Positions 1-62,758 of a stretch of DNA of 64,000 nucleotides are shown piece after piece. Numbering within the stretch: position 1 is the first letter of the stretch; each line of letters starts with the position of its first letter. Source of the stretch: Bradyrhizobiaceae bacterium (GTDB lineage Bacteria; Bacteroidota; Ignavibacteria; Kapaibacteriales; Kapaibacteriaceae); NCBI GenBank assembly GCA_024103135.1, contig JAGFIZ010000066.1, positions 12,568 through 76,567 of the forward strand, in the 5' to 3' direction. The notes beneath the pieces are model-generated. The model had not been told where the DNA came from. It was given only the letters and a program-made list of their open reading frames with translations, and did not search any database. The translations under genes were made by a program, and so were the position numbers.

Positions 1-309
1 CAATGTGCCAAGTATGAGAGCGGGGAGACGAATTGCAAACTCCGACGTCCACATGCCTCCCAGTGTGGTAACCCAGATTAGCCAACCAATGAGACCGGGG
101 TGATCATAGTATGCAAGTGCAGGATGTGCAGAGTAAGCCCAGTAGTATGCCTCGTCGTAGCCAAGGCCTACCATTGCAGCAAGCAAGGTGCGGATGCCTA
201 GTGAAACGATAATGATTACAACAACGCTCACCCGCGCTCGCTGGTCCTCTTCGGTGAGCGCCCCCTTGGTATCTTTGTAGTCTGTTTTTTTCAAAAGGCC
301 TACTATCAT
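1..309 (-). CDS. GT-C family glycosyltransferase (ArnT/PMT-like, polyprenyl-phosphate-sugar dependent), N-terminal part only. The gene runs off the window start. Its ATG is the reverse complement of 307-309 and overlaps the thiolase ATG at 308-310.
   Basis: Manual reverse-strand translation from 309 gives MIVGLLKKTDYKDTKGALTEEDQRARVSVVVIIIVSLGIRTLLAAMVGLGYDEAYYWAYSAHPALAYYDHPGLIGWLIW.... The DEAYYW...A(Y)YDHPPLIGW motif is typical of ArnT/PMT GT39/GT83 N-termini. The fragment is below the 60-aa ORF-track cutoff. Confidence 0.5.
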   Translation of the reverse strand, partial: MIVGLLKKTDYKDTKGALTEEDQRARVSVVVIIIVSLGIRTLLAAMVGLGYDEAYYWAYSAHPALAYYDHPGLIGWLIWVTTLGGMWTSEFAIRLPALILGTL

Positions 310-16058: not shown

Positions 16059-16079
16059 GGTGTTCTCGGTGGAAGAAAG

Positions 16080-17429: not shown

Positions 17430-17440
17430 GACATCAAACT

Positions 17441-17475
17441 AAAAAAAAAGGGGATGACTTCTCAGTCATCCCCTT
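17441..17475 (-). terminator. rho-independent terminator after the 678-aa T9SS gene
   Basis: On the minus strand: GGGGATGACTgagaAGTCATCCCC followed by a run of 9 T. Confidence 0.6.
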
Positions 17476-17492
17476 GAATGCTCGACGTTGGA

Positions 17493-19529
17493 TTAGCGCA
17501 CAACAACCAGTTGTTGTGTGCTTTGTTCGCCACCAATTGAAATCGTCACGTAGTAGGCACCAACCGACAGATTGTTGGTTGGGATGTTCAGACCATGCAA
17601 ACCAGCTTCGAGTGAACCATTGAAGATGGAAGCAACCTTTTCGCCAGTTGGGGCAAAAACGTTGATGCTTACCATGCCTGGTTGATTCATGGTGAAGGCA
17701 AGTTCGGCATTCGCAGAAGTTGGGTTTGGTGTGATGCTGTTGATGTGGAAGGAGTATGATGGCTCTTCGTCGACAGACACAACCGTTGCATTGAAGAACG
17801 TTGTCCGCACAGTGTTTGGCGTACGATAGTCAACCGAAGCATCCAGAACCATGTCCTGAACTTGGTTGATAGCTGGGAGGAATGGATAGTCCTGGCGGTA
17901 CTGTGACTTCTCGATGGTCTTCAACGTAAGAAGTGGAACGCTGGTCAGACTTTCGATAACCGGAGGGATGCGTGTACCGTGATCATATACTCTATCGTTC
18001 GTGAGGTTTCTTGGTGTACTCCATGTGCCACCATTTACTGAACGATAAGAAACGAAGACGTCGGTAGCTGTGATTGCCGTCAATTCGTCTTGAGCCCACT
18101 GACCACTGTTCTGGAAGGCAATGCGCTGCGTAAAGCCAGAATCAATGTATTCAGGGTTGTCGTCGATCCACTTTACGAGGATGCTGCTGCCGTCGGCAGT
18201 TTTGGTAACCTGAACCTCGTGACCGAGCGGGTTAGCCGAGTAAGCTGGAATCCAAGCGTACTGACCTTCGGCATCGGAGATACTGTCTTGACGGATAAAC
18301 TGAAGCGGGAAGCCGTTGATATCGGCAACCTTGTTAAGCGACCATGTACCACCAGCATAGCGTGCTTCGACAATGTCGATTGATGCCCATCGATTTTCTT
18401 CGACGGTACCGAGGCGGAGGATATAGGAGTACTCGTCAGAGCCGGTAACGACGAAGGCATCCATTTCGTAAACACCATAGTTACGAATGTTGCTCCAGCC
18501 ACGTGATGTCTGGTACGATGTAATCAGACTATATGGCATCTTGTTGAAGTCCGACCATGTAGCGCCTTGGTTTTCGGACGAGCTTACCGACGGGACGCGC
18601 TCGCTTGGGTTGGACGTAAAGACAAAATTCCCTGCTGCATACAACTTGCCATCGGCATCAGCTCCAACTAGTGGCGAAGTATTTAGCGTCGAACCAAGAT
18701 TTGGTGGGTCTGGCGTCTGGAACTGATCAATGTTCCATGCAGAGGGTACGGAGTTGGTGGTAAAGTCTTCGGCATTGAAGTCATACCCCCACGTACCAAG
18801 AACGCCATATTGCGTCGGTCCGTTGTTGATTGGCTTGTCCAGGCGCTGTGTATGATAAACAGCTGGATTGTCTGTGCTCACGCCGACCATGTCACCAAAG
18901 ATTCCCCAACCCATATCGGATGGAGCATTGTCAGGTGCTGGCATTGGGAATTCAAACAAGCCACTTGATGGCATGAAGAGACCAACCTGACCGTTGCGAG
19001 CCCAACTACTGGATTGTTCGTACAAACCGCAGAACAGTGCCCAGTTCAGATCTTCGAACTTGGCATTAGCACCCTTGGTGTTAACAACGGCGAAGTTTGG
19101 AAACGGTAGAAACTTGCCGGGTTGGTTATAGGCTTCTACTTCATTCCATGAAGCACCGTTGTCTGTCGTGGTATAGAAGCGCAACTGTCCGCCAGTAAGC
19201 TGGTTGTTTGCGAAAACCCGATTCCCACGTACAAGAATGGTTGTCTTCGAAATTGGTTCGTACACAAACACGCTGTTTTCATTGGCGATTTCCCAGTTAG
19301 GGAAAAAGTCCGTCTGATACATGTTGGTGAACGTAAGCCCCTGAGTATTCTCAGTGTGCTTTTGTGTGGATGGTACCATCTGTACTGGCGGTGTAGCCAA
19401 TGCTGACGGAGAAACCACGAGCGGTTGACGTGGCGTCTGAGACTGCTCGAATAGTACGCTTGGTAGTTGAGCAACTGCTGTGCTAGCACAGATTGCAGCA
19501 AGTCCAAGACCGAGGAGCGATGATTTCAT
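17493..19529 (-). CDS. secreted BNR-like repeat protein with canonical T9SS C-terminal domain
   Basis: Signal peptide. Asp-box-like TTTDNGASWNEV and SENQGATWSDF. C-terminal ...PNPTSANAELAFTM...VGAYYVTISIGGEQSTQQLVVVR is classic TIGR04183-type. Confidence 0.65.
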   Translation of the reverse strand: MKSSLLGLGLAAICASTAVAQLPSVLFEQSQTPRQPLVVSPSALATPPVQMVPSTQKHTENTQGLTFTNMYQTDFFPNWEIANENSVFVYEPISKTTILVRGNRVFANNQLTGGQLRFYTTTDNGASWNEVEAYNQPGKFLPFPNFAVVNTKGANAKFEDLNWALFCGLYEQSSSWARNGQVGLFMPSSGLFEFPMPAPDNAPSDMGWGIFGDMVGVSTDNPAVYHTQRLDKPINNGPTQYGVLGTWGYDFNAEDFTTNSVPSAWNIDQFQTPDPPNLGSTLNTSPLVGADADGKLYAAGNFVFTSNPSERVPSVSSSENQGATWSDFNKMPYSLITSYQTSRGWSNIRNYGVYEMDAFVVTGSDEYSYILRLGTVEENRWASIDIVEARYAGGTWSLNKVADINGFPLQFIRQDSISDAEGQYAWIPAYSANPLGHEVQVTKTADGSSILVKWIDDNPEYIDSGFTQRIAFQNSGQWAQDELTAITATDVFVSYRSVNGGTWSTPRNLTNDRVYDHGTRIPPVIESLTSVPLLTLKTIEKSQYRQDYPFLPAINQVQDMVLDASVDYRTPNTVRTTFFNATVVSVDEEPSYSFHINSITPNPTSANAELAFTMNQPGMVSINVFAPTGEKVASIFNGSLEAGLHGLNIPTNNLSVGAYYVTISIGGEQSTQQLVVVR

Positions 19530-21665: not shown

Positions 21666-23345
21666 CTAGGGAATGCGGACAAAGCGCTGACTGCTCACGA
21701 GCATCGAGCCATCACGTACTTGCATGGTATAGGTGCCGGCGGGGAGTGTAGCAACATTGATGATTGTTGACGTGCTGCTGGCATTGGCAACGAGCTGCAC
21801 GACACCCAGTGCATCAACGATGGTAATGGTGCTCGTTGCTGGCTGACCAGTAATCGTCAGCTGACCATGAGTGGGGTTGGGATAGAGAGCAACTGACGGA
21901 GACATTCCTTCGTGTACGCTGGTCACACTGCCCAGTTCTTGCAGTGGACCACCAGCAGTTTTTGCGACCCAAAGTCCAAGCGGAGCCCCTTGACCATTAC
22001 TTGAAGGCGTTAGAAAACCGCTAAGGAGCACAACACTTGCTTGTCCAGCAAGTGACGTAACGTCGGCGTTCACAGAGAGTATGGTCGAACCATCGGACAA
22101 AGTAACGGTCACCATTTCGGGTCCCGCCTCTAACGAAGCATACGACGTTGCAGCTTGATTATAGACCAGACCCGTTGCTGCCCTGGTTGCTCCATGCGTG
22201 ATGTTGACAGGCGGACAGTCGGTGCAGCCATTCATGTACAGCATGTCGAGAGCTGTTGGACTCAGGCCTGCAGGGAGCAGATTGTCGATCTTCATGAATG
22301 ACAATGCAATCGATTGTTGACTTGGGTTCGGGGCAAAGGCTGTCGTATCCCGAACACCGTTGAGGACGATTGCATACCGTCCCTTTTCAAGTGTGACGGT
22401 TGTAGAAGCAAATATGTCCGTAGCCGACGTACTGCCTGCCGGTGCGATACCAAGTTGAATACTTGTCTTTGTTGGAACTGGCAAGAACTGTGTGGCCGTT
22501 CTGAACTTGAAATCACGATGTGCCAGGGCAGGACCAATGTAGAGGTCGACAACTGCTAGTGAAGGATCGGCCGAGTTATGAATGAGCTGTACGTCTGCAG
22601 CCGATGGAAGAGCCGTTGGCATCAACTGAATGAACGGACCACCAGTAGGTGAAACAAGGTACAGGCCAAATGGCAGACCATTCTGGTTGGCTTGCGGTAC
22701 AAGAAAGCCCGAAGCAAGGATGTATACCGTCTGCTCGTTGAAACTGGTCAAGTCGGCTGCATAAGCGATAAGGGGCTGACCACCTGTAGGAGCCACGGCT
22801 AGTGTATGGTTCACTGCCGGAACTACGCCACCATCTGCAATGCCATTGTAGGCGAGATTGCTGGCAAGTGTCGTGGTGCCTGAAGCAATGTCCATGACTG
22901 GAGCATCGGTTGCTCCTTGCATGAACAGCACATGGGTTGAACCAACAGGAGGCACCGTTGAAGGTACCTCGATTACTATGAAGGCGAAGTCGATGGCTGC
23001 TCCCGCAGGGTTGGCGAGAAACTCAACAGGGTTAAACACACCGGTGGCGACAACAAGGTACTTCTTGCCTGCTTCGAAGGAAAGTTGCTTGTAGAACGTT
23101 GCTTCGGATGACGACGTCGATGTACCGGGAGCGATGCCTACTCGGTGTTCAACGGACGCAGTAACGTCTATGTATGCAGAGGAGAAACGAAAGTTGATAT
23201 CATCAACTTGTTGGTCGTCAATCCAAAAGTCGGCACTTGCAGCAGAAGGGTCTGCACTATTGTTAACAAACTGAATCTGTGCTGTTTGTGCTTGAGTTGC
23301 AATGGCAACCACAAACAGCGCAAGTAGCACTGTTATGCTTCGCAT
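21666..23345 (-). CDS. secreted DUF4397-like repeat protein with T9SS C-terminal domain
   Basis: Signal peptide. Internal duplication (IQFVNNSADPSAASADFWIDD / VQLIHNSADPSLAVVDLYIG). C-terminus ALYPNPTHGQLTI...AGTYTMQVRDG...RFVRIP. Confidence 0.6.
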   Translation of the reverse strand: MRSITVLLALFVVAIATQAQTAQIQFVNNSADPSAASADFWIDDQQVDDINFRFSSAYIDVTASVEHRVGIAPGTSTSSSEATFYKQLSFEAGKKYLVVATGVFNPVEFLANPAGAAIDFAFIVIEVPSTVPPVGSTHVLFMQGATDAPVMDIASGTTTLASNLAYNGIADGGVVPAVNHTLAVAPTGGQPLIAYAADLTSFNEQTVYILASGFLVPQANQNGLPFGLYLVSPTGGPFIQLMPTALPSAADVQLIHNSADPSLAVVDLYIGPALAHRDFKFRTATQFLPVPTKTSIQLGIAPAGSTSATDIFASTTVTLEKGRYAIVLNGVRDTTAFAPNPSQQSIALSFMKIDNLLPAGLSPTALDMLYMNGCTDCPPVNITHGATRAATGLVYNQAATSYASLEAGPEMVTVTLSDGSTILSVNADVTSLAGQASVVLLSGFLTPSSNGQGAPLGLWVAKTAGGPLQELGSVTSVHEGMSPSVALYPNPTHGQLTITGQPATSTITIVDALGVVQLVANASSTSTIINVATLPAGTYTMQVRDGSMLVSSQRFVRIP

Positions 23346-27020: not shown

Positions 27021-29933
27021 CTATTGTTTGACGACAGTTTGGTAGGTAACGTGATCTTCGTTGCGAACAATCACAAAGTACGTGCCATTTGCCAGTGTGC
27101 TGACGTTGATCGGAATGGTGCGCTCTCCGCTGAGTTCGCCGTGATAGAGATCAGCAAGACGTTGGCCTGCCAATGAGTAGAGGGCAACATCAATCTCTGA
27201 AGCGTAGCCAACGATGCTTGCCATACAGGTAGACGAAGTAACGTTCCCTGCAATGGAGATCGTGGGGGACGGCTTGACGAGGTATTCGTGAACGGAGGTC
27301 GGATCGGTCGTATCGGCTGTGTCCGGCACCACGGCTCCTTCCAACCACTCGAGTGATCTGTCGAGAACCGTAGTGCGCTGCTTGCCATCACGAAAGCGTG
27401 CAGCGTTGATGCTAAGGAGGACGGTGCGTTGTTCGTTCACGGTGTAACGTGTACATACGATGCTCGACGTGTCGTGGCTTGCACGTAAGGCAGCATGGGT
27501 AGAGTCGGATACGGAGGTTACGACCACATCAGGCACATAGAAGGCACCGCGATGGTGATCAAGACGTGGTAGGGTGCAAAGTACCTGCTTCATGTCAAAC
27601 GTGATGGGATCACGTGCGTCACCTAGGAAGAGTCGCTGTCCATTGTCCGATGGAACTTGATCAGCACCACGTAAACGGGCTCCGAATCGGGAGAAGAAGA
27701 GTGTAGAACCAGGCAGATCTGTTCGCAGTAGCAGCGGGTCGTCTGCTACTAGCATCAGCTCCACGCCGCGATCCAGGAGACCTTGGATTACGGCATCGTC
27801 GGTAACGCTGATCTCACCAAAGCTTCCGCCATTCCACAATACTACTTGCAGGTTGGGGAGTAGATGAGCTGTTCTGACAAAGACGTCGGAACGCAGTGAA
27901 ACATATCCTACACGATCGGTCATGTCTACAGCTTCGGTAATCCTGAACACCTCCATGAGCGCGTCATCCACAACGGCCTTGGTGATTGAACGAGGGACGA
28001 GGGTGGTACGAGCACGAATGCCCTCGGTACCGTCACTCATGCGCTCGCGCAACTCGACTTCAAAGGCATGGAGAGAGTCGGGAAGCGTAAGAGTTACGCT
28101 TAGCATTTGCGTTGTAGCGACTGCGATGGTCACTTCGCTCTCATAGGGCAGTGCAGTCCAGTCGCTTGTCCCGTCCGCCGTTTGTGTTCGGATGTAGGCA
28201 ACGGTCGACGCTGTATGTGGAAGGGGGCTTTGATTATGGTAGTCAAAATCGACGTTGGCTTGAATGTCCGTGACCACGACGTCAGTACGTGCCTGAAGGT
28301 AAGAGTCGGCCTCCGTGTCGAGTCGACCAACAGTGCTGGTAGCTCTATCAACAAACCACAAACGATTGTCAGGTCCGTAGCAAATGCCCAACAATTCGGT
28401 AGCACCGGTGGGGATGGTGCCTAAGGGGTCGACGCCATCAGGAGTGATGGCAAACACATGAATGAGTCCGCTACTACGGTCACCAACGAAGAGGCGATTC
28501 CCTGAGACTTCAATGCCTACTGGTTCCACGAGGCCCGTGTTAATGACCGTGTCGACCATAGCCCCCTTCCATTCACTGTATTCTGCGAGTGGTTCGGTGC
28601 TTTCTTCGGGAGCCACGAGGTTGCGGACGAAGGAGCCGGTGCGAGTGTTCAAGCGCGTGACGATGTTTGCTCCTGGGTCAACGATGTAGAGCATGCCTGT
28701 TGACTTGTCGAGGGCGATATGTCCGGGTTCGCCAAGCTGTCCGCCTGACACGGTTGCATCGGCATACCGGCGGATGACGCCATCACGGTGGTCGGTACCG
28801 CCGACTTCGTGTGGGTCTTTGAAGTCGTAGCGTGTGATGTCCTTATAGTACGCATCGCTTACCCAATAGACATTTGCCGAATCGTGAGCGATTCCAAGAT
28901 TCTGCGGACTCTGGTGAAGCATGTCGAGGTGTGATGCGAGGATCCTTGAATCGCTTTGATAGCGAGAGGCGAACACGGCGGTATCGGCTGACCAGAGTGT
29001 AGGCCCCATAAACTGGTAGAACGGATTGTGGTTGCCAGGTGCACCATTCTGTGCCGTTGCAAACGTTCCGTTGCTGCCCATGGCGATTGCATGGGTTCGC
29101 CACATGAAGTGTGATGCCCGGCTGTCTTTCTTGATGGTGACGGAGCGATGTGCACTATCGATGGCGTTATGCAGAATGGCAATGGCATTCCCCGGATTGC
29201 TTGTTAGCACAACCCATAGATCATGAGGGTTAAGTGGACTATGATTAAAGTCAAGGTCCATCGGTGCGTTGATACCCTCCGCCGGGCCGGCCACAATGGT
29301 AGATCTGACGTTGTTGTTGAGGTATCGATCGGCAGGGTGTGAAGTAGAGGTGGGCATGCCTTGTGCGTGCGGCGTAGCATGGTCGGCAGCAACGCTTACA
29401 AGGTGTTCCAGATCAAGGTAGGGCTCGTCGGTAAGTGTGATGAACTGTACGATGCCCTTGTACACGACCATTGAAGCGTGGAGGTTGAGGGACTTGTTGT
29501 CCAGTCGCTGTTTTGCACCCAAGAGTTTTGCAAACCCATTGTTGGTATCGGTTAGCAGTGTCAGCACTGACGTGTCGTAGTTCATCCGTTGTTGGTGCAG
29601 CGTATTTGTCCGCTCATCATCTGCACTTACAGCATAGACGCGGATACCAAGCTGTTGCAAACGACGTGCATAACGATTGAGGTAGGCAAGCTGTTCGACG
29701 CAGTGTACGCAACTAAAACCCAGGTATCGGACGATGATGATGGGGTGCTGCATGGATGCAGATGTTAGGTCGACCCTGCGTTTGCCCGCAAGAACGTCAT
29801 GGTTAGGCAGCGGCATGGTACGCTGAACACGAGCAGGATAGCTCCGTTGTTCGTGTTCTTGCGTCATCACAGGAGCCGCCGTGCCGACAATCAGCAGAAT
29901 GCTGACGGTAGTGCGAAGTAGGGTGTTCATCAT
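27021..29933 (-). CDS. large secreted multidomain protein: N-terminal redoxin (thiol-disulfide oxidoreductase, CxxC), beta-propeller/NHL-like repeats, canonical T9SS C-terminal domain
   Basis: 970 aa. Signal peptide. FSCVHC in an AhpC/TSA-redoxin-like segment. Repeated YIVDPGANIV / LFVGDRSSGLIHVF-type blades. C-terminus ...VALYSLAGQRL...NGTYFVIVRNE...YQTVVKQ. Confidence 0.6.
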   Translation of the reverse strand: MMNTLLRTTVSILLIVGTAAPVMTQEHEQRSYPARVQRTMPLPNHDVLAGKRRVDLTSASMQHPIIIVRYLGFSCVHCVEQLAYLNRYARRLQQLGIRVYAVSADDERTNTLHQQRMNYDTSVLTLLTDTNNGFAKLLGAKQRLDNKSLNLHASMVVYKGIVQFITLTDEPYLDLEHLVSVAADHATPHAQGMPTSTSHPADRYLNNNVRSTIVAGPAEGINAPMDLDFNHSPLNPHDLWVVLTSNPGNAIAILHNAIDSAHRSVTIKKDSRASHFMWRTHAIAMGSNGTFATAQNGAPGNHNPFYQFMGPTLWSADTAVFASRYQSDSRILASHLDMLHQSPQNLGIAHDSANVYWVSDAYYKDITRYDFKDPHEVGGTDHRDGVIRRYADATVSGGQLGEPGHIALDKSTGMLYIVDPGANIVTRLNTRTGSFVRNLVAPEESTEPLAEYSEWKGAMVDTVINTGLVEPVGIEVSGNRLFVGDRSSGLIHVFAITPDGVDPLGTIPTGATELLGICYGPDNRLWFVDRATSTVGRLDTEADSYLQARTDVVVTDIQANVDFDYHNQSPLPHTASTVAYIRTQTADGTSDWTALPYESEVTIAVATTQMLSVTLTLPDSLHAFEVELRERMSDGTEGIRARTTLVPRSITKAVVDDALMEVFRITEAVDMTDRVGYVSLRSDVFVRTAHLLPNLQVVLWNGGSFGEISVTDDAVIQGLLDRGVELMLVADDPLLLRTDLPGSTLFFSRFGARLRGADQVPSDNGQRLFLGDARDPITFDMKQVLCTLPRLDHHRGAFYVPDVVVTSVSDSTHAALRASHDTSSIVCTRYTVNEQRTVLLSINAARFRDGKQRTTVLDRSLEWLEGAVVPDTADTTDPTSVHEYLVKPSPTISIAGNVTSSTCMASIVGYASEIDVALYSLAGQRLADLYHGELSGERTIPINVSTLANGTYFVIVRNEDHVTYQTVVKQ

Positions 29934-53695: not shown

Positions 53696-55114
53696 TTACG
53701 TGTTAAGTGTTTTCAAAAACTCTGCATTACTCTTTGTGGCACGCATACGTTCCAAGAGCGTTTCCATTGCCTCAATTGGAGGATCGTCGCCCAACACCTT
53801 ACGTAGAATCCAGACCTTGTTGAGTTCTTCTTGCGTCATCAACAATTCTTCACGGCGGGTTCCACTTCTGTTCACATCGATAGCCGGATAGATCCGCCTG
53901 TCGGCAATCTTCCGATCAAGCACCAACTCCATGTTACCGGTACCCTTGAACTCTTCAAAGATCACTTCGTCCATCCGTGAGTTCGTCTCTACCAGCGCCG
54001 TTGCAATAATCGTTAGAGAGCCCCCTTCCTCTACATTCCGTGCTGCGCCGAAAAATCGCTTTGGCCTGTGAAGGGCATTGGCATCGACGCCGCCGGAGAG
54101 GAGTTTGCCACTCTGGGGGACAACGGTGTTGTGTGCGCGTGCAAGACGTGTAATGGAGTCCAGAAGGATCACAACGTCCTGTTTGGCTTCGACTAGACGT
54201 TTGCTCTTTTCGAGCACCATGTCGGCAACCTGTACGTGTCGCTCAGGCGGTTCGTCGAACGTCGATGCCACCACTTCGGCAGCAACCGACCGTTGCATGT
54301 CGGTCACCTCTTCTGGACGTTCGTCGATAAGCAATACAATGAGCTTGACCTCTGGATGGTTGCGTGCGATGGCATTGGCAATCTTCTGGAGAAGGATGGT
54401 CTTGCCCGCCTTTGGTGGACTTACAATCAGGCCACGCTGCCCCTTGCCGATTGGACTCACAAGGTCGATCACTCGTGTGCTGAATTCATTATGCGTTGTT
54501 TCCAGCGTAAGCCGTGATTGCGGATACAGTGGTGTAAGATTCTCAAACAACACTCGTTCACGCGTCTCGACGTACGTTTCGTAGTTGATGCTGTCAACCC
54601 GCACAAGAGCAAAGAAGCGCTCACCGTCACGGGGCTGACGCACGAAAGCCTTCACGGTGTCGCCAGTGCGCAAACCATACTTGCGGACCTGAGATGGGCT
54701 CACATACACATCGTCATGCGACGGAAGGTAGTTGTAGCTGGCTGACCGCAAGAATCCGTAGCCGTCGGGCAACACCTCTACAACACCCACGCTGATGGTG
54801 GTGCTTTCACGGTGTGTTTCCTTTAGCTGCCGAGCATTCTCTGCTTCGACGATCTTGACGATCAGGTCCTGCTTACGTAAGTCACTGATCTGCTCCAGAC
54901 CAAGCTGCTTGGCAATCTCCATGAGCTCTGCAATCTTCTTGCTCTTGAGCTCCGGGATGTTGATAACGATTGCCGGTGTTTCGGGTGTTTCAACGTCAGG
55001 TGTTTCCTGATACTCTCGTTGTTCACGAGGCCGTTGATCACGATAGTCACGTCCGCGGTGTCCGCGAAAGTCTCGCCCGCGGTTACCGCGCTGCGAATAT
55101 TGGCGTTGTGCCAT
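53696..55114 (-). CDS. rho: transcription termination factor Rho (with Arg/Gly-rich N-terminal extension)
   Basis: Walker [13 protein letters not shown]. Rho RNA-binding OB region. 472 aa. Confidence 0.9.
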
Positions 55115-55363
55115 GCGTACTCGACGCTAGTTGAAAAAATAGAGGGAGTCCAGCGTATGGTAGATACCGCACAATAAGGAATGCGGAAACGTTAGGTAAA
55201 GGGCTTACCAGTAAGTGGACTACGCGAAAATGTGACGGAAACAATCAACGTGCAAATTCTTTTGTGTTGCTCACTCGCTGCGGAGGTGTCACAAAAGGTC
55301 GGTACATGCCCACCTAGGTGTGTGATGGCGAGTAGAATTTTCCATACAAGCACAGTCGCCTTA

Positions 55364-55399
55364 ACAAACACAGTGACAAACACAGTGGCAAACACAGTG
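55364..55399. repeat. three tandem 12-bp repeats (ACAAACACAGTG x3) immediately upstream of the 55409 start codon
   Basis: ACAAACACAGTG / ACAAACACAGTG / GCAAACACAGTG read directly. Sits in the divergent rho / secreted-protein promoter region. Confidence 0.5.
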
Positions 55400-55408
55400 G
55401 CATTCATC

Positions 55409-55873
55409 ATGGTATTCATCGTACTGGCAAGCGCACCAGCGATGGCACAAGGCCGACATCTTGTGGTCAGCGCTGCGGCAGGGGGCTATGTATCTGTAGG
55501 TGATCTGGCTGGACACGTCGGACTGCGTCCGCCTAGCCTTAAGCCCGTTGCTGGCAGACCTCACCAAGGCGTGACTAGTCCTAGGGTCGACAACGTCGTT
55601 GTTAACCGCGGTACCGCCTGGTTCATTCCGAACATGTACCTTGGTACGTACCGACGGCGCGGTGGGACAGGTGATTCAACGGTACTGACCCTCCGCGCGT
55701 CGATTCAGAGTCTTACGGGCCAGCAAGTCAAGTCCGCTGTTGAACTGGAGGTGGGAGAGTCTGGGGTGACGTTAACACTAGGGGCTGTTCTTGCCAACGG
55801 ATTGTATGTAGTGTTGTTCAACGACTCGCAAGGATTGCATCATGCCGTTACGGTGCTGCAGCAGGATGGTTGA
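55409..55873 (+). CDS. small secreted hypothetical protein, C-terminus weakly T9SS-CTD-like
   Basis: Signal peptide MVFIVLASAPAMAQG. C-terminal GVTLTLGAVLANGLYVVLFNDSQGLHHAVTVLQQDG. The track ORF from 55232 uses a GTG and would translate the repeat as TNTV repeats. Confidence 0.35.
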   Translation: MVFIVLASAPAMAQGRHLVVSAAAGGYVSVGDLAGHVGLRPPSLKPVAGRPHQGVTSPRVDNVVVNRGTAWFIPNMYLGTYRRRGGTGDSTVLTLRASIQSLTGQQVKSAVELEVGESGVTLTLGAVLANGLYVVLFNDSQGLHHAVTVLQQDG

Positions 55874-55988
55874 CGTGTTGGGGGGACGTGGACTTGACGA
55901 CGGATAGCGTAATTCATGTGACGTGTCTGGACGACAAACACTGGTTTATACGGGCTTCCCTGGGCCAGAATACCCGTATTTTTGTCAG

Positions 55989-57056
55989 ATGAAACACGTT
56001 CTTCTTATCGGTCTACTCGGTGCAGTAACCGTCAGTGCACAACCACGATTTGAGCAACCACGTGTGGCAACTCCACGCGGACACAATCGCATTTCGGCGA
56101 GTTCGATGGAAGACGCAATGGTTGCACCGGAAAAGATCTTTCGATTGGATCTGTCCGGACAAACAACTGGGATCCCGTCCAACCTGGCTGACCTTGTGAA
56201 TTTGAGAGAGTTGCGGTTAGCCTCGTGCAACCTGTCGAATCTTCCCTCGGCCTTAGCCGCATGTAAGAACCTGGAAGTCCTTGATCTTTCCAACAATGGC
56301 TTTACCAGCATCCCCGCGGTGTTAGCCGAGTTGCCCAACCTGCGGGTACTGGATGTTTCTAACAATCCATTGACGAATCTTGAACCCCTTGCCAACTGCC
56401 AGGGTTTGCAAACGCTGCATATCAAGAACTGTGGTTTGCAGTCAATCCCAAGTTCCGTGGCCTCCAACCCATCAATTCAAGAGATACATGCCAGTGGCAA
56501 CAAGCTCACGAGTTTGCCATCAAGTCTGCAACAGTGCAAGTCACTGCGTGGTTTGATGCTACAGTACAATGCCTTTACCACCGTTCCCGAGGTGATCAGT
56601 TCTATTGGATCACTGCGTGATCTGGATCTCTCTGGCAACAAGCTCACCAGCTTACCCAGCACACTGTTAAGTAAGGACGGACTCGTTTCGCTCAATGTGA
56701 ATGGAAACGCGCTGACATCACTTCCCACGTCGATGGCCTGCTCCACACTGCGTTCGTTGGATGCCGACTCGAATGCCATCACGGTCATCCCGAGCAGCAT
56801 AGGTAAGCTTACCTCACTTGAGCGTCTCTCGCTCATCCACAACAAGCTTTCGACGGTCCCCAAGGAGATTGGGCAGTGTAAGCAGCTGGCGTTGTTGAAC
56901 CTTTCTGCTAACGCCATCACCTCCTTACCCGTAGCAGAGTTAGCCTCGTTACCAGCACTCATGTGGCTGCGTATTGCGAACGAACAACCGGCGCTAAACG
57001 CAGATGGGACGCCGCGTTCGACAACACCTGCACCGTCGGGTGCAAAAAAACCGTAA
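55989..57056 (+). CDS. secreted leucine-rich repeat (LRR) protein
   Basis: Signal peptide. About 12 LxxLxLxxNxL repeats (LRELRLASCNLSNLP, LEVLDLSNNGFTSIP, LRVLDVSNNPLTNL, and others). Confidence 0.8.
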   Translation: MKHVLLIGLLGAVTVSAQPRFEQPRVATPRGHNRISASSMEDAMVAPEKIFRLDLSGQTTGIPSNLADLVNLRELRLASCNLSNLPSALAACKNLEVLDLSNNGFTSIPAVLAELPNLRVLDVSNNPLTNLEPLANCQGLQTLHIKNCGLQSIPSSVASNPSIQEIHASGNKLTSLPSSLQQCKSLRGLMLQYNAFTTVPEVISSIGSLRDLDLSGNKLTSLPSTLLSKDGLVSLNVNGNALTSLPTSMACSTLRSLDADSNAITVIPSSIGKLTSLERLSLIHNKLSTVPKEIGQCKQLALLNLSANAITSLPVAELASLPALMWLRIANEQPALNADGTPRSTTPAPSGAKKP

Positions 57057-57148: not shown

Positions 57149-57156
57149 ATGCGTAA

Positions 57157-57190
57157 AACGTCATGAACATTGTTCATGGCGTTTTTTCTT
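57157..57190 (+). terminator. rho-independent terminator after tRNA-His
   Basis: AACGTCATGAACA...TGTTCATGGCGTT hairpin followed by TTTTTTCTTTTT. Confidence 0.6.
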
Positions 57191-57258: not shown

Positions 57259-58998
57259 ATGGTCACCTTTGTTCTCCATACCCACCTGCCACACGTGCTG
57301 CATCATGGTACGTGGCCGCACGGTAGCGACTGGCTCTGTGAAGCCGTGGCGGAGTGCTATGTGCCCATCCTCAATGCTTGTCATAGACTGTTAGCGGATG
57401 GGATTCGACCGGGCATTACGTTCGACATTTCACCAGTTCTGTGTGAGCAACTCGCACATCCGGACTTCCCAGCGGTGTTCACAACGTACTGTGAAGAGCA
57501 CATTGCCCTTGCCAAAGGTGATGCTCTCCACTTTGAGAAAGAGAAGAACAGCGAGTTTGCGAAGCTGTCGGAGCAGTGGGCTACGTGGTATGCAGACAGA
57601 CTCGAAGACTTTCGGGACACGTACCAGACCAGTATCGTCGGGGCCTTGAAATCCCTACAGGACAGTGGAGCCATCGAAGTCCTTACCTGTGGCGTTACCC
57701 ACGGTTACTTACCCTTACTGGCCGAAGATGCAAGTGTCGACCTACAGGTTCGGCTTGCCGTAGAGAACTATCAACGACACTTTGGTCGAAGTCCACGTGG
57801 CATTTGGCTCCCAGAGTGTGCATACCGTCCGGCCTATCCTTGGCGTACCTATCTGCCGGTAGCCGCCTATGCTGTTGCTCGAATGAGGGATGGCATTGAG
57901 CAGGTGTTGAGTCGGTACAACCTGGAGTATTTCATTACCGACGAAGGGGCGTTGCAACAAAGCACACCGTTAGGTGTCGAAACGCCGAACGGTAGGGTAG
58001 CCCTGTCAGAAACGTACGGAGAGGCACGCAAACAACTTGAAGCACGCAGTGTGTACCAAGTGTACCGTGCTGGTGGAAACGATCATCAAGAGTCGGTTGC
58101 CTTCTTCACGCGAAATCAGAAGATTGCCTTGCAGGTGTGGAGTGGGGATACGGGGTATCCAGGTGATCCAGACTATTTGGACTTTCACAAGAAGTTCTTC
58201 AGGTCGGCCCTGCGGTATTGGCGTGTTACGGATAACAAGGCCGACATGCAGTACAAGCAGTCATACGTTTCGGAGTGGGCAGAGCATAAGGCCATCGAGC
58301 ATGCAAAGCATTTTTCGGATATCCTTGAAGTCACGGGCAGGTATCACCTTGGTGAGTCAGAGCAACTACCGACCATCTGTCTGCCCTTTGATACCGAGCT
58401 CTTCGGGCATTGGTGGTTCGAGGGTCCGCTCTTCCTCGAACACGTCATCCGTAACATTCATGCATCGCACATTCTATCGACCTCTACCACATCGGAGAAG
58501 CTTGATCTCCTGAAGCCAACCATGGTTGTCGCACTACCTGAGAGTTCCTGGGGCAGAAACGGTAACCACGATGTGTGGATGAACCCTGATGTACAATGGA
58601 CATGGGAGCGTGAGTACAAGCTGGAGAATCGTATGCGCATGCTGATGGAAAAGCATAAGCATGGTACATGGGACTCGCTGATGAAGCGACTTGTGCTTGC
58701 TGCCTTCCGTCAGATGCTGCTTGCACAAGCATCGGACTGGCAATTCCTCATTACCACGTTCTCCTCGCGCGAATACGCGGCAATGCGCTTCCACAACCAT
58801 GCAACCGATGCGATGCAGCTTGCCGATGCAGCAGAGCGGTATGCGGTAAGTGGGGGCATCAGCGTAACGGACAGACAGGTACTCGAAGCGTGTGAAGAGC
58901 GTGACAGCGCCTTCCAGACAGAGCTGGAACACTATCTGTTCGGTGGCAGGATCAAAGAGTCAGGAAAGTCAGATACCAGTACCAAACATCATCAATAA
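57259..58998 (+). CDS. glycoside hydrolase family 57 protein (GH57 1,4-alpha-glucan branching enzyme type, DUF1957 C-terminal)
   Basis: N-terminal FVLHTHLPHV...WLCEA and ...WGxxG...DxWMN... regions are typical of GH57. 579 aa. Confidence 0.8.
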   Translation: MVTFVLHTHLPHVLHHGTWPHGSDWLCEAVAECYVPILNACHRLLADGIRPGITFDISPVLCEQLAHPDFPAVFTTYCEEHIALAKGDALHFEKEKNSEFAKLSEQWATWYADRLEDFRDTYQTSIVGALKSLQDSGAIEVLTCGVTHGYLPLLAEDASVDLQVRLAVENYQRHFGRSPRGIWLPECAYRPAYPWRTYLPVAAYAVARMRDGIEQVLSRYNLEYFITDEGALQQSTPLGVETPNGRVALSETYGEARKQLEARSVYQVYRAGGNDHQESVAFFTRNQKIALQVWSGDTGYPGDPDYLDFHKKFFRSALRYWRVTDNKADMQYKQSYVSEWAEHKAIEHAKHFSDILEVTGRYHLGESEQLPTICLPFDTELFGHWWFEGPLFLEHVIRNIHASHILSTSTTSEKLDLLKPTMVVALPESSWGRNGNHDVWMNPDVQWTWEREYKLENRMRMLMEKHKHGTWDSLMKRLVLAAFRQMLLAQASDWQFLITTFSSREYAAMRFHNHATDAMQLADAAERYAVSGGISVTDRQVLEACEERDSAFQTELEHYLFGGRIKESGKSDTSTKHHQ

Positions 58999-59003
58999 AT
59001 GGC

Positions 59004-59879
59004 ATGAGCGCTGTACTCGAACAGTTACGTATTCATCAATGGTTGAAGAATCTGCTGGTCTTTGTGCCCTTGGTATTGGCCCATGAGTTTCAGAATACAC
59101 AAAGCTTCGTTACAACCTTGCTGACGTTTGTGGTCTTCAGCGTAGTTGCCAGTGCAATGTACGTGATGAATGATCTGGCAGATGCGCGCCACGATGCACT
59201 ACATCCTACCAAGAGACACCGTCCCATTGCCTCAGGTCGACTCTCACGAACGGTTGCACGGGCAATGCTCGTTACGCTTGTGCTTATTGCCGTCAGCATA
59301 TGCACCATTGCCTTGCCGAAGGTCGTCTGGGTATGGCTTGCTGCCTACGTTGTGATGAACCTTGCCTACACCTACTGGCTAAAGAGCGTTGTGTTGATCG
59401 ATGTGTTGTTGCTAAGTCTGTTCTACACGCTTCGTCTTCTTGCTGGCGCTGCTGCGGCTGACGTCGAGGCATCGCCGTGGCTTCTTGCGTTCTCGTTGTT
59501 TGTCTTTACGAGTCTTGCCTTTATGAAGCGTTATACCGAACTACTCGACAAGGGAGATTCTGAAGAGGTTATCTCAGGCAGAGGGTATCGACCAAGCGAT
59601 GCTTCGATGATTGGCGTGTTGGGACCAGTGATGGGCGGAATAGCCGTCCTCGTGTTTGTCCTCTATCTGAACAGTCCAAGTGTTGTTGAATTGTACTCGA
59701 ACCCCCGAATCCTTTGGCTGTTAACGCCGCTGATTTTGTATTGGGTGTCGTACATGTGGATGAAGGCGCATAGGGGAGAGATGCACGACGATCCAGTTGC
59801 GTTTATTCGCACGGATGTGCCATCGTATGTTGTGTGTGCGTTTTCTGCAGCCATTCTTGTGTGGGCTCAGTTGTCATGA
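59004..59879 (+). CDS. UbiA-family prenyltransferase. Decaprenyl-phosphate 5-phosphoribosyltransferase (Rv3806c/UbiA)-like.
   Basis: QWLKNLLVFVPLVLA and VVFSVVASAMYVMNDLADARHDALHPTKRHRPIASGRL are closely similar to the Rv3806c segment ...VVFSLAASAVYLVNDVRDVEADREHPTKRFRPIAAG.... NDxxDxxxD motif and 8 TM. Confidence 0.8.
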   Translation: MSAVLEQLRIHQWLKNLLVFVPLVLAHEFQNTQSFVTTLLTFVVFSVVASAMYVMNDLADARHDALHPTKRHRPIASGRLSRTVARAMLVTLVLIAVSICTIALPKVVWVWLAAYVVMNLAYTYWLKSVVLIDVLLLSLFYTLRLLAGAAAADVEASPWLLAFSLFVFTSLAFMKRYTELLDKGDSEEVISGRGYRPSDASMIGVLGPVMGGIAVLVFVLYLNSPSVVELYSNPRILWLLTPLILYWVSYMWMKAHRGEMHDDPVAFIRTDVPSYVVCAFSAAILVWAQLS

Positions 59880-61177
59880 CGAGACTGATTGAAAGTTGGG
59901 GACGATACCCGCGGTGTACACCACGAGCAATTGCAACGCTTCCACAGGCATGTATCACGTCGGCTGAAACCATCGGAGAATACCTAGCCCCCTACCAGCC
60001 ACCGTACTTGTCGTTCGGGTTGCAGCGCAGCTATGGTGACGTTGGCTTGAACGACGGCGGCACGATGATCGACACGTCGATGCTGACGGGAATCATTGCA
60101 GCCGACTTTGACACTGGAGTGATTACGGTTGCAGCGGGTACATCGCTTGATGCGATCATTCGCCAAGTAATACCACGTGGCTGGATGCTGCCGGTTGTGC
60201 CTGGTACGCGATGGATCACCGTCGGCGGAGCAATCGCCAACGATATTCACGGTAAGAACCATCACATAGCTGGATCGTTTGGTAATCATGTGCTGGAGAT
60301 TGGCTTGTGGTGGAAGGGGGCATTCGACACGTGCTCAGCCGTTCATAATGCCGACGTGTTTAGGGCGACGATTGGTGGACTAGGGCTAACGGGATTGGTA
60401 GTCTGGGCAACCATACAACTCGAGAAGGTGCAGTCGTCCCTCCTGGACGTGTGGACAAGCAAGGTAACGCTCGATGCAATGGTGACGTCGTTGCACAGGG
60501 CAGACGCACGGTATCCGTACTCCGTTGCCTGGCTTGATGTACAACGACAGCGTGGTCTACTTCAGTTGGCAATGCCAAGCAACGTCAGCAATCACACTGT
60601 TCCTCCAAACCACAAGGTGAATGTGCCACGCTGTTCATCGTTGTTCGTAAATGATCTAACCGTGGGGATTGGCAACGTTGCATACTTCCATGCCTTAGCG
60701 ATTCGATCGGGCAAGCAAACGACATCGATGACAAAGTTTTTCTTTCCGTTGGATGTCGTGAACAACTGGAATGTTGTGTACGGTAGAAGCGGATTTCTTC
60801 AGTACCAGTTCGTTGTTCCAAGCGATCAATGGGAGCGCTGCATTCATCAAGTGTTGAACGTACTTCGCACACATGGTGTGGCCTCGTATCTAGCTGTGGT
60901 CAAGACCTTTGGCACCGTTGCTTCGAAAGGCATCATGTCGTTCCCCATGCCAGGTGTTACCCTTGCCATGGATGTTCGTAACACCCCAACAGCACGGAAG
61001 GCGCTCGATGAGTGCGACGTGGTTGTTGCCGAAGCCGGTGGCAGGGTGTACCTTGCAAAGGATGCCAGGTTATCTCCAAAGGTGTTTGCGGACATGTATG
61101 GAGAGCAACTCAAGGAGTTCAGTCAGCATGTCGACCCGGCCTTCTCCAGCTCGTTGTGGCGTAGAGTGAATGGCTAA
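59876..61177 (+). CDS. FAD-dependent oxidoreductase, DprE1-like (decaprenylphosphoryl-beta-D-ribose 2'-oxidase homolog)
   Basis: [32 protein letters not shown] is nearly identical in pattern to the DprE1 segment [32 protein letters not shown]. Also [10 protein letters not shown]. ATGA overlap with the upstream gene. Confidence 0.85.
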   Translation: [433 protein letters not shown]

Positions 61178-61234
61178 ACCACTTCGGCGCAGACATCGAT
61201 CACCACTCATTGCCCATCATTTAGACCACGCACT

Positions 61235-61993
61235 ATGATTCGTAGATCAAAGGCCAGACCAAGAACAATGGTCATCATTGGAGCACTAAGTGCAATTGCC
61301 AAGGGCGTTGCACAGGAGTATGCAAAGGCCGGATCACGGTTCTTTCTCGTTGCAAGAAACGAGGAAGCGCTTCTTGAGCTTGCAAAGGAATTGCAGACGC
61401 TTGGGGCTGTACAATGTGTGGTCTACGTCGCAGATGTCCGCCAGCGTGATAGCCACGCTGATGTAGTCGAACGCTGTGTGGCAGACCTAGGCAGGATCGA
61501 TGTTGTGCTTATTGCCCACGGGGTGTACCCTGATAGAGAGATTACTGCTGGCGATGTCGATATCATGCTCGATAGTTTCATGACCAATGCCGTGAGCACC
61601 ATTTCGTACATGCATCGCTTTGGTGACGTGCTCAAGCAACAAGCACACGGCCTGCTTGCCGTACTGTCGAGCGTAGCTGGTGATAGAGGACGGCTGAAGA
61701 ACTATCACTACGGCAGTGCGAAAGCTGCTGTTTCGGCCTATGCTTCGGGTCAGAGGGCAGAGCTTGCCGACCACAACGTGCGCGTCCTGACGATCAAGCC
61801 TGGTCCGGTTTCGACGCCAATGACCACACACACCGACATGCCCCTACAGGTATCCGTAAGTCGAGTAGTCCCCGATATCGTCCGCGGCATCGAGGAACAA
61901 CGATGCGTCGTGTACACCCCATGGTATTGGAGGTGGATCATGCTCGTAGTACGCATGATTCCAGAGCGGTTGTTCATGAAACTTAAACGATAG
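61235..61993 (+). CDS. short-chain dehydrogenase/reductase, DprE2-like (decaprenylphosphoryl-2-keto-ribose reductase homolog)
   Basis: SDR Rossmann N-terminus. YxxxK (YHYGSAKAA). The C-terminal RWIMLVVRMIPERLFMKLKR parallels the DprE2 tail YVMMVLRHIPRSIFRKLPI. Confidence 0.8.
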   Translation: MIRRSKARPRTMVIIGALSAIAKGVAQEYAKAGSRFFLVARNEEALLELAKELQTLGAVQCVVYVADVRQRDSHADVVERCVADLGRIDVVLIAHGVYPDREITAGDVDIMLDSFMTNAVSTISYMHRFGDVLKQQAHGLLAVLSSVAGDRGRLKNYHYGSAKAAVSAYASGQRAELADHNVRVLTIKPGPVSTPMTTHTDMPLQVSVSRVVPDIVRGIEEQRCVVYTPWYWRWIMLVVRMIPERLFMKLKR

Positions 61994-62155
61994 GTAACGC
62001 TACGTCCCTTGCTGACCGTGCTAGACATCACAAGCTTTCAGCATAGCATCCCACGTCCTCCGAACAGCAAAAAGAAACGCTCGCCACACGGTAGTGTAGC
62101 GAGCGTGTATTGTTCTTGAGTAGGTAGCGAGCCTTTGAGAAGGCCAGTCACGTCC

Positions 62156-62758
62156 CTAGATCGCCGAGGCCTCGAAGTTCAGTGTAAGATCTACTGTACC
62201 TTCGATGTGAGTAGCACTAGCAGGACCCGTATTCATCGCACCATAGTCCACGCGAACGCAGAACTTCGGACGCTGAAGGATGAGCTTGACGGCCTCATCG
62301 GCACCCGATGATTTCGGGATAACCAGGGCTGTTCCACCAGCAGGACCGTACATGCCGGCCAACGACACATCGGTCAGGCCACCGATTTCGTACACCTGCG
62401 GGTCGTTGTAAATCGGATCGAACACCAGGTAAATCCGTACATAGGTAAACTTCTGGTCGGCTAGCGTTCCAGAGGTAAACACTGGATTAACAAGCTGGTC
62501 GATCAGTACCTTGAGTTCCTTGACCGTAGCCCCTTCAAACTGATCCTTGTTGTCAAGGTAATCCTTGTTCGTGCTCAGGTCGGCACAATCCTCATCCACG
62601 AATGGGATAACAGGGTTATCCGACTTGGGATGAATGGAAACCGTGATCGGGATCTTGAGCTTGGCTGCATTGGTAATGGCTTCGCAGCCACCGATGAACA
62701 TGGCACATACCATGGCAATTGCCAATGGCAAAGCGAGCAGTCGTAGTCGTTGCCTCAT
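62156..62758 (-). CDS. hypothetical lipoprotein
   Basis: Signal peptide with lipobox (FIGGC). No family assignment. Confidence 0.4.
   Translation of the reverse strand: MRQRLRLLALPLAIAMVCAMFIGGCEAITNAAKLKIPITVSIHPKSDNPVIPFVDEDCADLSTNKDYLDNKDQFEGATVKELKVLIDQLVNPVFTSGTLADQKFTYVRIYLVFDPIYNDPQVYEIGGLTDVSLAGMYGPAGGTALVIPKSSGADEAVKLILQRPKFCVRVDYGAMNTGPASATHIEGTVDLTLNFEASAI

Follow-up and report, generated by a model that had tools for sequence, protein, structure and literature searches.

A UbiA-DprE1-SDR gene cassette located behind a GH57 gene in an Ignavibacteria-like lineage, and its predicted role in the synthesis of a lipid-linked D-arabinofuranose donor

The DNA analysed here is a stretch of 64,000 nucleotides (positions 12,568 to 76,567 of contig JAGFIZ010000066.1, assembly GCA_024103135.1), hereafter called the window. 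It contains a cassette of three co-directional genes, coding for a UbiA-type enzyme, a DprE1-like oxidase and a DprE2-like short-chain dehydrogenase/reductase (SDR), immediately preceded by a gene of the GH57 family. The four-gene unit is proposed, with a probability of about 0.75, to encode the synthesis of a polyprenyl-phosphate-linked D-arabinofuranose (D-Araf) donor at the cytoplasmic face of the membrane; the estimate includes the proposal that the cassette is inherited, within an Ignavibacteria-like clade, as a transcription unit of four genes behind the GH57 gene. This reading is based on homology, conserved residues, predicted fold and conserved gene order. An earlier note on this DNA had described the three open reading frames (ORFs), which are found at the same coordinates in the ORF list of the window, and had assigned them to the donor pathway. 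The assignment is upheld: the best matches among solved structures are Rv3806c, DprE1 and DprE2, the catalytic motifs checked are present, and the UbiA-type protein is predicted to share the fold of Rv3806c. The three genes are:

59004..59879, + strand: putative UbiA-superfamily polyprenyl-phosphate 5-phosphoribosyltransferase, similar to the polyprenyl- and decaprenyl-phosphate enzymes (PPPRS/DPPRS-like); 291 aa, Pfam UbiA at 2e-24
59876..61177, + strand: putative DprE1-like FAD-dependent polyprenyl-phospho-ribose 2'-oxidase; 433 aa from the ATG at 59876, in an ORF open from 59834; Pfam FAD_binding_4
61235..61993, + strand: putative DprE2-like SDR (2'-keto reductase); 252 aa, Pfam adh_short at 2.5e-36; metagenome gene callers place the start at 61268, giving 241 aa

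Similarity of the three proteins to the mycobacterial enzymes

A search of all sequences in the PDB identified Rv3806c of Mycobacterium tuberculosis (8j8j, 6e-24) as the closest match of the UbiA-type protein, with an identity of 33.5% over the N-terminal 182 aa by BLASTP. Among the NCBIfam models, NF006088/PRK08238 ('UbiA family prenyltransferase') was passed with 357.8 bits, for a cut-off of 351, by a match which covers only positions 193-480 of the 482 of the profile, i.e. its UbiA half; this model is characteristic of the HAD-UbiA proteins of proteobacteria. The protein carries the residues N56-D57-x2-D60-x3-D64 and K175-R176-x2-E179, invariant in 38 homologs; the motifs NDxxDxxxD, in cytoplasmic loop II, and R..E, in loop IV, are functionally important in C. 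youngae ORF15 and in Rv3806c (PMC11127046). An AlphaFold2 model built on the alignment of the 38 homologs (pLDDT 93.8) is composed of nine long helices. Its top fold match is again Rv3806c (8j8j_A), with a template modelling (TM) score of 0.82 over the full length and 297 columns, while other UbiA structures, including the archaeal UbiA homologs, score between 0.6 and 0.7. Both the sequence and the model support a role of this protein as the polyprenyl-phosphate phosphoribosyltransferase of a D-Araf donor pathway.

Most non-actinobacterial relatives carry an N-terminal phosphoribose-phosphatase (PRP) domain of the haloacid dehalogenase (HAD) type, which is missing from the window protein; an in-frame stop is found just upstream. 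None of the best 25 UbiA matches, nearly all 289-312 aa in length (one has 383 aa), contains a HAD domain, and the HAD-fused proteobacterial proteins rank after these short forms, at 45-51% identity. A neighbour-joining tree of the UbiA domains, rough (185 columns, no support values) and used only for this purpose, grouped the short forms of the Fibrobacteres-Chlorobi-Bacteroidetes (FCB) bacteria together, inside the PRK08238-type radiation. Apart from them in the tree stands a second short type, lower-scoring (95-140 bits), found in Acinetobacter, Acidovorax and Advenella loci, which we suspect to be a candidate Pseudomonas-like type.

The oxidase matches DprE1 at 3e-64 over residues 44-430 when compared to PDB sequences, the next family being found at 1e-5, and is 36.6% identical to M. 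tuberculosis DprE1 over 413 aa (BLASTP). Residues Y60, H132, K134, Q334, Q336 and K418 of the M. tuberculosis enzyme correspond to Y53, H125, K127, Q309, Q311 and K395, all invariant in an alignment (A1) of 15 sequences from several phyla. Two other positions are changed, Cys387 to Ala364 and Asn385 to Thr362, both in the window protein and in all 15 aligned non-actinobacterial homologs. Cys387 is the covalent benzothiazinone site, typical of mycobacterial DprE1, and is not known to be needed for catalysis.

The SDR gene lies directly downstream of the DprE1-like gene. The top PDB sequence match of its product is DprE2 (21gq_C, 1e-24), with the next SDR eight orders of magnitude behind (5e-16), and the alignment runs end to end, residues 5-250 on residues 5-252 of 21gq_C. 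The identity to M. tuberculosis DprE2 is 27.5% over 247 aa (BLASTP). The catalytic N-S-Y-K set is present (N118, S145/S146, Y159-x3-K163) and the DprE2-type C-terminal segment is kept, W..W.IMLVVRMIPERLFMKL corresponding to F.YVMMVLRHIPRSIFRKL in M. tuberculosis and IPERLFMKL falling on IPRSIFRKL (IPxxxFxKL). Among the NCBIfam models the best for this protein is PRK07102, at 238 bits, below its cut-off of 267, and the DprE2 model ranks second; the DPPRS models likewise follow PRK08238 for the UbiA protein, and the DprE1 model ranks first for the oxidase.

The earlier note had considered that the proteins might prove to be distant relatives devoid of the catalytic residues of DprE1 or DprE2; counterparts of the former and the N-S-Y-K set of the latter are both found. 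It had also described several 30-aa stretches as almost motif-identical to the mycobacterial enzymes. Long near-identical stretches do occur in the DprE1-like protein, e.g. the block beginning PGTR, and are confined to it, the description not being applicable to the products of the other two genes.

The four-gene unit and its conservation in related genomes

The additional features of the unit and its borders are:

57155..57185, + strand: terminator-like hairpin ending the preceding leucine-rich-repeat (LRR) gene, 5' of the unit; 14-bp stem followed by a T-run, consensus match only
57259..58998, + strand: GH57 alpha-glucan branching-enzyme-like gene, first of the four-gene unit; Pfam Glyco_hydro_57 and BE_C
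62077..62106, - strand: terminator-like hairpin between the SDR gene and a convergent lipoprotein-like gene; 13-bp stem with 8 G-C pairs and a T-run, consensus match only

Only 5 nt separate the GH57 stop from the ATG of the UbiA-type gene. The stop of the latter and the start of the DprE1-like gene overlap as ATGA (59876-59879), which is the sole overlapping junction of the three genes, and 57 nt lie between the DprE1-like gene and the SDR gene, a distance which grows to 90 nt if the alternative SDR start is used. The three genes had been described as translationally coupled: the first two overlap, but a gap of 57 or 90 nt implies that not all three are coupled. Similarly, the cluster had been presented as complete with three genes; these are indeed present, but the GH57 gene belongs to the unit too. 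The two hairpins bracket exactly the four genes, and the one at 62077-62106 is the probable 3' boundary of the unit.

The order GH57-UbiA-DprE1-SDR is kept in eight related loci from FCB genomes (L023, L059 and L089-L094), in four of which (L089-L092) the gene calls indicate a 4-nt overlap of the GH57 and UbiA genes. In most of the eight the synteny is wider, with rho upstream and ftsH, hpt, tilS, dus and a gene of the multidrug and toxic compound extrusion (MATE) family downstream. In L092 both flanks differ and the four-gene block is intact. The DprE1 and UbiA proteins of these loci are only about 40-55% identical to those of the window, and the retention of the cassette at such a distance argues for selection. 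The joining of the GH57 gene and the cassette is a stable, clade-specific feature. Together with a UbiA protein devoid of a fused HAD phosphatase and the lack of an adjacent flippase or transferase of the GT-C fold (glycosyltransferase fold C), the operon with GH57 is a peculiarity of this lineage.

The GH57 protein carries the motifs WLPECAY (183) and DTELFGHWW (378), which we take to be the regions of the catalytic Glu and Asp; no signal peptide is apparent by eye, and the protein resembles an ordinary cytoplasmic glycogen branching enzyme. Orthologs at 51% identity are found without the cassette in two loci (Kapaibacterium L095, and L096), and only 2 of the 80 best cassette loci, both from FCB genomes, have a GH57 neighbour. 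Each part therefore exists without the other, and GH57 was rejected as an obligate partner of the cassette.

The FCB context proposed by the earlier note, for a bacterium equipped with a type IX secretion system (T9SS), is confirmed by three window proteins with Por_Secre_tail domains. The named closest homologs of the GH57 and UbiA proteins come from Ignavibacteria, Kapabacteria, a 'Chlorobi bacterium' and Bacteroidota metagenome-assembled genomes (MAGs). Identical proteins (MCO6466113.1-MCO6466115.1) are filed at NCBI under a 'Bradyrhizobiaceae bacterium' MAG; given the T9SS cargo, the synteny with Ignavibacteria, Kapabacteria and 'Chlorobi' MAGs and the names of the homologs, on which the taxonomic placement is based, the label probably reflects a mislabelled or mis-binned assembly.

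Some neighbouring genes may be recorded here. Convergent to the SDR gene, a 200-aa ORF (62156-62758, - strand) has a signal resembling those of lipoproteins (…FIGGC) and matches neither Pfam nor NCBIfam; a counterpart of 201 aa occupies the same position in L089-L091 and is absent in L023, L059, L093 and L094. Directly upstream of the unit lie a small ORF without family matches (55232-55873, + strand) and a gene for a secreted LRR protein (55923-57056, + strand; LRR_8, LRR_4). ORFs of similar size and position are found in L089-L092, including the rearranged L092, LRR matches being recorded only in the L091 copy. Further upstream, the Rho termination factor (53696-55114, - strand) has an N-terminal extension of about 45 residues, rich in Arg, Gly, Asp and Gln, before the Rho_N domain. 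A cluster of genes for secreted proteins (14694-19529, 21666-23345 and 27021-29933, all on the - strand) includes two Sortilin-Vps10/BNR proteins and the three T9SS Por_Secre_tail proteins; one protein of the cluster has a DUF4397 domain and another, of 970 aa, an AhpC/Redoxin domain. A 1541-aa DUF748 protein is encoded at 2929-7554 (+ strand), beside isocitrate dehydrogenase and thiolase genes.

Distribution of the cassette

In a word-indexed search with DprE1, 8000 candidates were scored, of which 7993 reached E<=1e-30, the named matches including Rhodothermales, Sphaerobacter, Verrucomicrobia, Patescibacteria, Nitrospiraceae and Thermoanaerobaculia. An exhaustive HMMER search of 1.84 billion representatives at 50% identity yielded 1313 DprE1 clusters at the same threshold. 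The exact DprE1-like protein of the window is recorded in 43 blocks of the assembly collection, and the relative P0152 in 257.

Genomes were then scanned for whole loci, one genome per GTDB species, and the best 80 loci of at least 600 matches, among which the genome of the window is not listed, were used for the counts. The UbiA-DprE1-SDR cassette is found in at least 12 phyla. The 80 loci include Bdellovibrionota, Verrucomicrobiota (Opitutales), Chloroflexota (Anaerolineae, Ktedonobacter), Acidobacteriota, Myxococcota and Omnitrophota, as well as Alpha-, Beta- and Gammaproteobacteria. The FCB bacteria are represented by Kapaibacterium (L011), Ignavibacteria (L023) and Bacteroidota (L059). 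The order UbiA, DprE1, SDR holds in most loci, and the UbiA protein is usually 470-500 aa long, corresponding to a HAD domain (PF12710) joined to UbiA.

The neighbourhoods were inspected for membrane proteins by a hydropathy screen and a Pfam scan. At least 17 of the 69 analysable loci encode a polytopic membrane protein larger than 400 aa no farther than 1 kb from the cassette, mostly right after the SDR gene, and in 6 loci the cassette is directly preceded by a gene for an LPG_synthase_TM-type protein of about 330 aa. Some of the large proteins, a few in number, belong to PMT/PMT_2, with tetratricopeptide (TPR) repeats, and most have no Pfam family. BLAST clustering of the neighbours across the 80 loci produced small clusters only, GT-C proteins being too divergent. 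Many polytopic proteins of 500-700 aa without a Pfam match are seen next to the cassette in loci L007-L086 (e.g. L008 12079-13779, L048 11984-13747, L056 6211-7872); these are probably unclassified GT-C arabinofuranosyltransferases.

According to Kelly et al. (PNAS 2024, PMC11127046), pentofuranose donor systems are widespread and composed of a polyprenyl-phosphoribose synthase, a flippase and a GT-C enzyme, with homologs of DprE1 and DprE2 where the glycan contains Araf. The neighbourhoods in which the cassette is accompanied by a large membrane protein or by LPG_synthase_TM match this architecture. Among bacterial glycan-donor modules, this cassette is one of the more widespread. The earlier expectation that the pathway would be rare, and surprising in an FCB bacterium, did not survive the count of at least 12 phyla, Ignavibacteria, Kapaibacterium and Bacteroidota MAGs included, nor the 1313 clusters; its wide spread and its conservation in the window's own lineage leave it with a low surprise value. 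Likewise, the statement that its use outside actinobacteria is limited to Pseudomonas pilins and rhizobial Nod factors is out of date, given the systems described in PMC11127046 and the presence of the cassette in many phyla.

Proposed pathway, alternatives and known systems

In the proposed pathway, the UbiA-type enzyme would transfer the 5-phosphoribosyl group of phosphoribosyl pyrophosphate (PRPP) to polyprenyl phosphate, forming polyprenyl-P-ribose-5-P; the lipid carrier, in this Gram-negative bacterium, is most likely undecaprenyl phosphate. The 5-phosphate would then be removed by a phosphatase encoded at another site of the genome; the UbiA protein carries no HAD fusion, and the surroundings of the cassette lack both HAD and PAP2 genes. 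The DprE1-like flavoenzyme, as its conserved catalytic residues suggest, would oxidise the 2'-OH of the ribose to a 2'-keto intermediate, and the DprE2-like SDR would use NAD(P)H to reduce this to the arabino-configured product, polyprenyl-P-D-arabinofuranose. The lipid-linked Araf may finally be flipped, and a periplasmic GT-C enzyme encoded at an unlinked locus may transfer it to an envelope glycan or protein.

Candidates for the steps not covered by the cassette were sought in the surrounding DNA. A separately encoded HAD/PRP phosphatase in the vicinity was rejected: five PRP domains, used as tblastn queries on the window and on nine related FCB loci, gave only noise (E>1), and the Pfam maps of the window contain no HAD or PAP2 gene. 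The sole GT-C gene of the window lies at its left edge, about 59 kb from the cassette:

1..294, - strand: PMT_2 (ArnT/PMT-like GT-C) gene, N-terminal part; PF13231 detected on the 548-aa product in an overlapping NCBI contig

The earlier note had pointed to this gene at the other end of the window. The PMT_2 assignment is real, but a link to the cassette is not supported, and the gene was rejected as the partner GT-C; besides its distance, no meaningful resemblance to cassette-adjacent membrane proteins was seen, a single marginal match (E 1.8e-4, 13 bits) having been obtained to one of 43 such proteins, which come from other phyla. Past the right end of the window, a MATE (MatE) gene follows the SDR gene at a distance of about 7 kb, with ftsH, hpt, tilS, dus and a DNA glycosylase gene in between. 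It is syntenic in several relatives and absent from L092, which keeps the cassette; it is treated as probable background synteny rather than as the flippase for the cassette. An unlinked GT-C has a precedent in P. aeruginosa, where tfpW, the GT-C gene, and the donor cluster occupy separate loci, and where glycosylation continues to a lesser extent in a phosphatase mutant (bioRxiv 10.1101/2020.04.19.049825).

Several results weigh against a D-Araf donor. All proteins score below the cut-offs of the equivalog models for the actinobacterial enzymes: the UbiA protein against three DPPRS models (158 bits for a cut-off of 234, 151 for 207 and 114 for 474), the oxidase against the DprE1 model NF053785 (333 bits, 3e-99, for 500) and the SDR against the DprE2 model NF053786 (160 bits for 250). 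Orthology to the actinobacterial enzymes is thus not formally established by these models, of which NF053785 appears to be tuned to actinobacterial sequences. With identities of 27-37%, the earlier description of the three proteins as close homologs of the mycobacterial ones was too strong: homology is clear, closeness is not. The pathway is also incomplete as seen, since neither the window nor the eight related FCB loci contain a HAD, PAP2, GtrA, SMR, LPG_synthase_TM or GT-C gene within 10 kb of the cassette, in agreement with the earlier remark that neither a PAP2 phosphatase nor a GT-C gene is adjacent. In addition, the sugar product, the polyprenol and the acceptor are all inferred, and a search of the literature library retrieved no paper linking DprE1 or D-Araf to Ignavibacteria, Bacteroidota or Chlorobi.

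The same low identities to characterised DprE1 (37%) and DprE2 (27.5%), together with the scores under the equivalog cut-offs, leave room for a cassette whose oxidase and SDR have diverged in stereochemistry or substrate, and which makes a lipid-linked pentofuranose other than D-Araf, such as polyprenyl-P-ribofuranose, a 2-keto sugar or a different epimer. One PPPRS entry point indeed feeds ribofuranose, xylofuranose (Xylf) and Araf systems by means of auxiliary epimerases (Kelly et al., PMC11127046). Such a product is nonetheless quite unlikely: among the cases cited, whether characterised or structure-matched, a DprE1/DprE2 pair always goes along with Araf; Xylf systems rely on a single SDR epimerase of another kind (PMC11127046); and the window proteins keep the catalytic residues of DprE1 as well as the C-terminal segment specific to DprE2. 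A more radical departure, in which the UbiA protein would be an aromatic or lipid prenyltransferase, the substrate of the oxidase and the SDR would be a non-sugar lipid, for example a quinone or some secondary metabolite, and the similarity to the mycobacterial pathway would be limited to the superfamily level, is highly improbable. UbiA, FAD_binding_4 and SDR are all broad superfamilies, and many homologs are annotated by JGI as '4-hydroxybenzoate polyprenyltransferase'. The NCBIfam models for ubiA, heme o synthase and chlorophyll synthase, however, reach only 20-40 bits on the UbiA protein, as compared to 358 for PRK08238 and 114-158 for DPPRS; its fold is nearer to Rv3806c than to prenyltransferase structures, and FAD oxidases of the PDB other than DprE1 match the oxidase at E>=1e-5, versus 1e-64 for DprE1.

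A further proposal, compatible with the synthesis of a D-Araf donor, ties the cassette to its GH57 neighbour, the unit building or decorating an alpha-glucan-based or novel glycoconjugate rather than a lipopolysaccharide or a protein glycan. The short gap in the window and the overlap in L089-L092, the survival of the block in L092 despite the rearrangement of both flanks, and the enclosure of exactly four genes by the hairpins all speak for it. The GH57 orthologs devoid of the cassette, from Kapaibacterium and another MAG, the near absence of GH57 from the other cassette loci, the cytoplasmic appearance of the protein and the fact that unrelated functions often share operons speak against it, and the proposal is rated as rather improbable. 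Also unlikely is the broader scenario in which the T9SS-bearing clade, related to Ignavibacteria and Kapabacteria, makes an undescribed D-Araf envelope glycoconjugate, where the operon of GH57 with a phosphatase-less cassette could mean that alpha-glucan metabolism and Araf glycosylation are linked, metabolically or structurally, and a GT-C of a new family would be encoded elsewhere.

If the D-Araf donor reading is true, members of an uncultured, widely sampled FCB lineage have an envelope glycan or glycoprotein that contains D-Araf, a sugar known above all from the arabinan of mycobacteria, and add one more phylum-level case to the emerging picture of lipid-linked pentofuranose donors as a general bacterial strategy. 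The chemistry is established elsewhere, and the finding alone opens no new question. DprE1 proteins, a leading target of tuberculosis drugs, form a large and varied family beyond actinobacteria, with the drug-reactive Cys replaced by Ala in every aligned non-actinobacterial homolog.

Compared to the decaprenylphosphoryl arabinose pathway of M. tuberculosis (Rv3806c, DprE1 Rv3790 and DprE2 Rv3791), the window shares the three enzyme families, the predicted chemistry, the catalytic residues and the best solved-structure matches. It differs by the identity of 27-37% with scores under the equivalog cut-offs, by the change of DprE1 Cys387 to Ala, by the lack of an adjacent Emb/Aft GT-C, PAP2 phosphatase (Rv3807c) and GtrA-like Rv3789, by the lipid, probably undecaprenyl-P instead of decaprenyl-P, and by the host, Gram-negative and with T9SS cargo. 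Outside actinobacteria, a donor pathway of the UbiA/DprE type also serves the D-arabinosylation of Nod factors in Azorhizobium caulinodans (noeC and its neighbours), whereas the window locus has no nod context.

The cluster for D-Araf glycosylation of pilins in P. aeruginosa Pa5196/PA7 (PsPA7_6245-6249, with TfpW) resembles the window in its Gram-negative host, the HAD-less UbiA, the DprE1/DprE2 pair and the unlinked GT-C (bioRxiv 10.1101/2020.04.19.049825). In contrast, the UbiA protein of the window groups with the PRK08238-type clade, the unit has no GtrA-like or PAP2 gene, and no pilin link is seen. The three-component pentofuranose systems (PMC11127046), represented by the HAD-UbiA (PRK08238), DprE1 and DprE2 cassettes of Xanthomonas, Stenotrophomonas and others, differ from the window by the fused HAD domain, by the adjacent MATE flippase or GT136/GT-C enzyme, and by the absence of the GH57 gene behind which the window cassette sits. 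With them the window shares the gene order and the PRK08238 model, passed by its UbiA protein, which has 45-51% identity with the UbiA domain of the Stenotrophomonas and Xanthomonas proteins.

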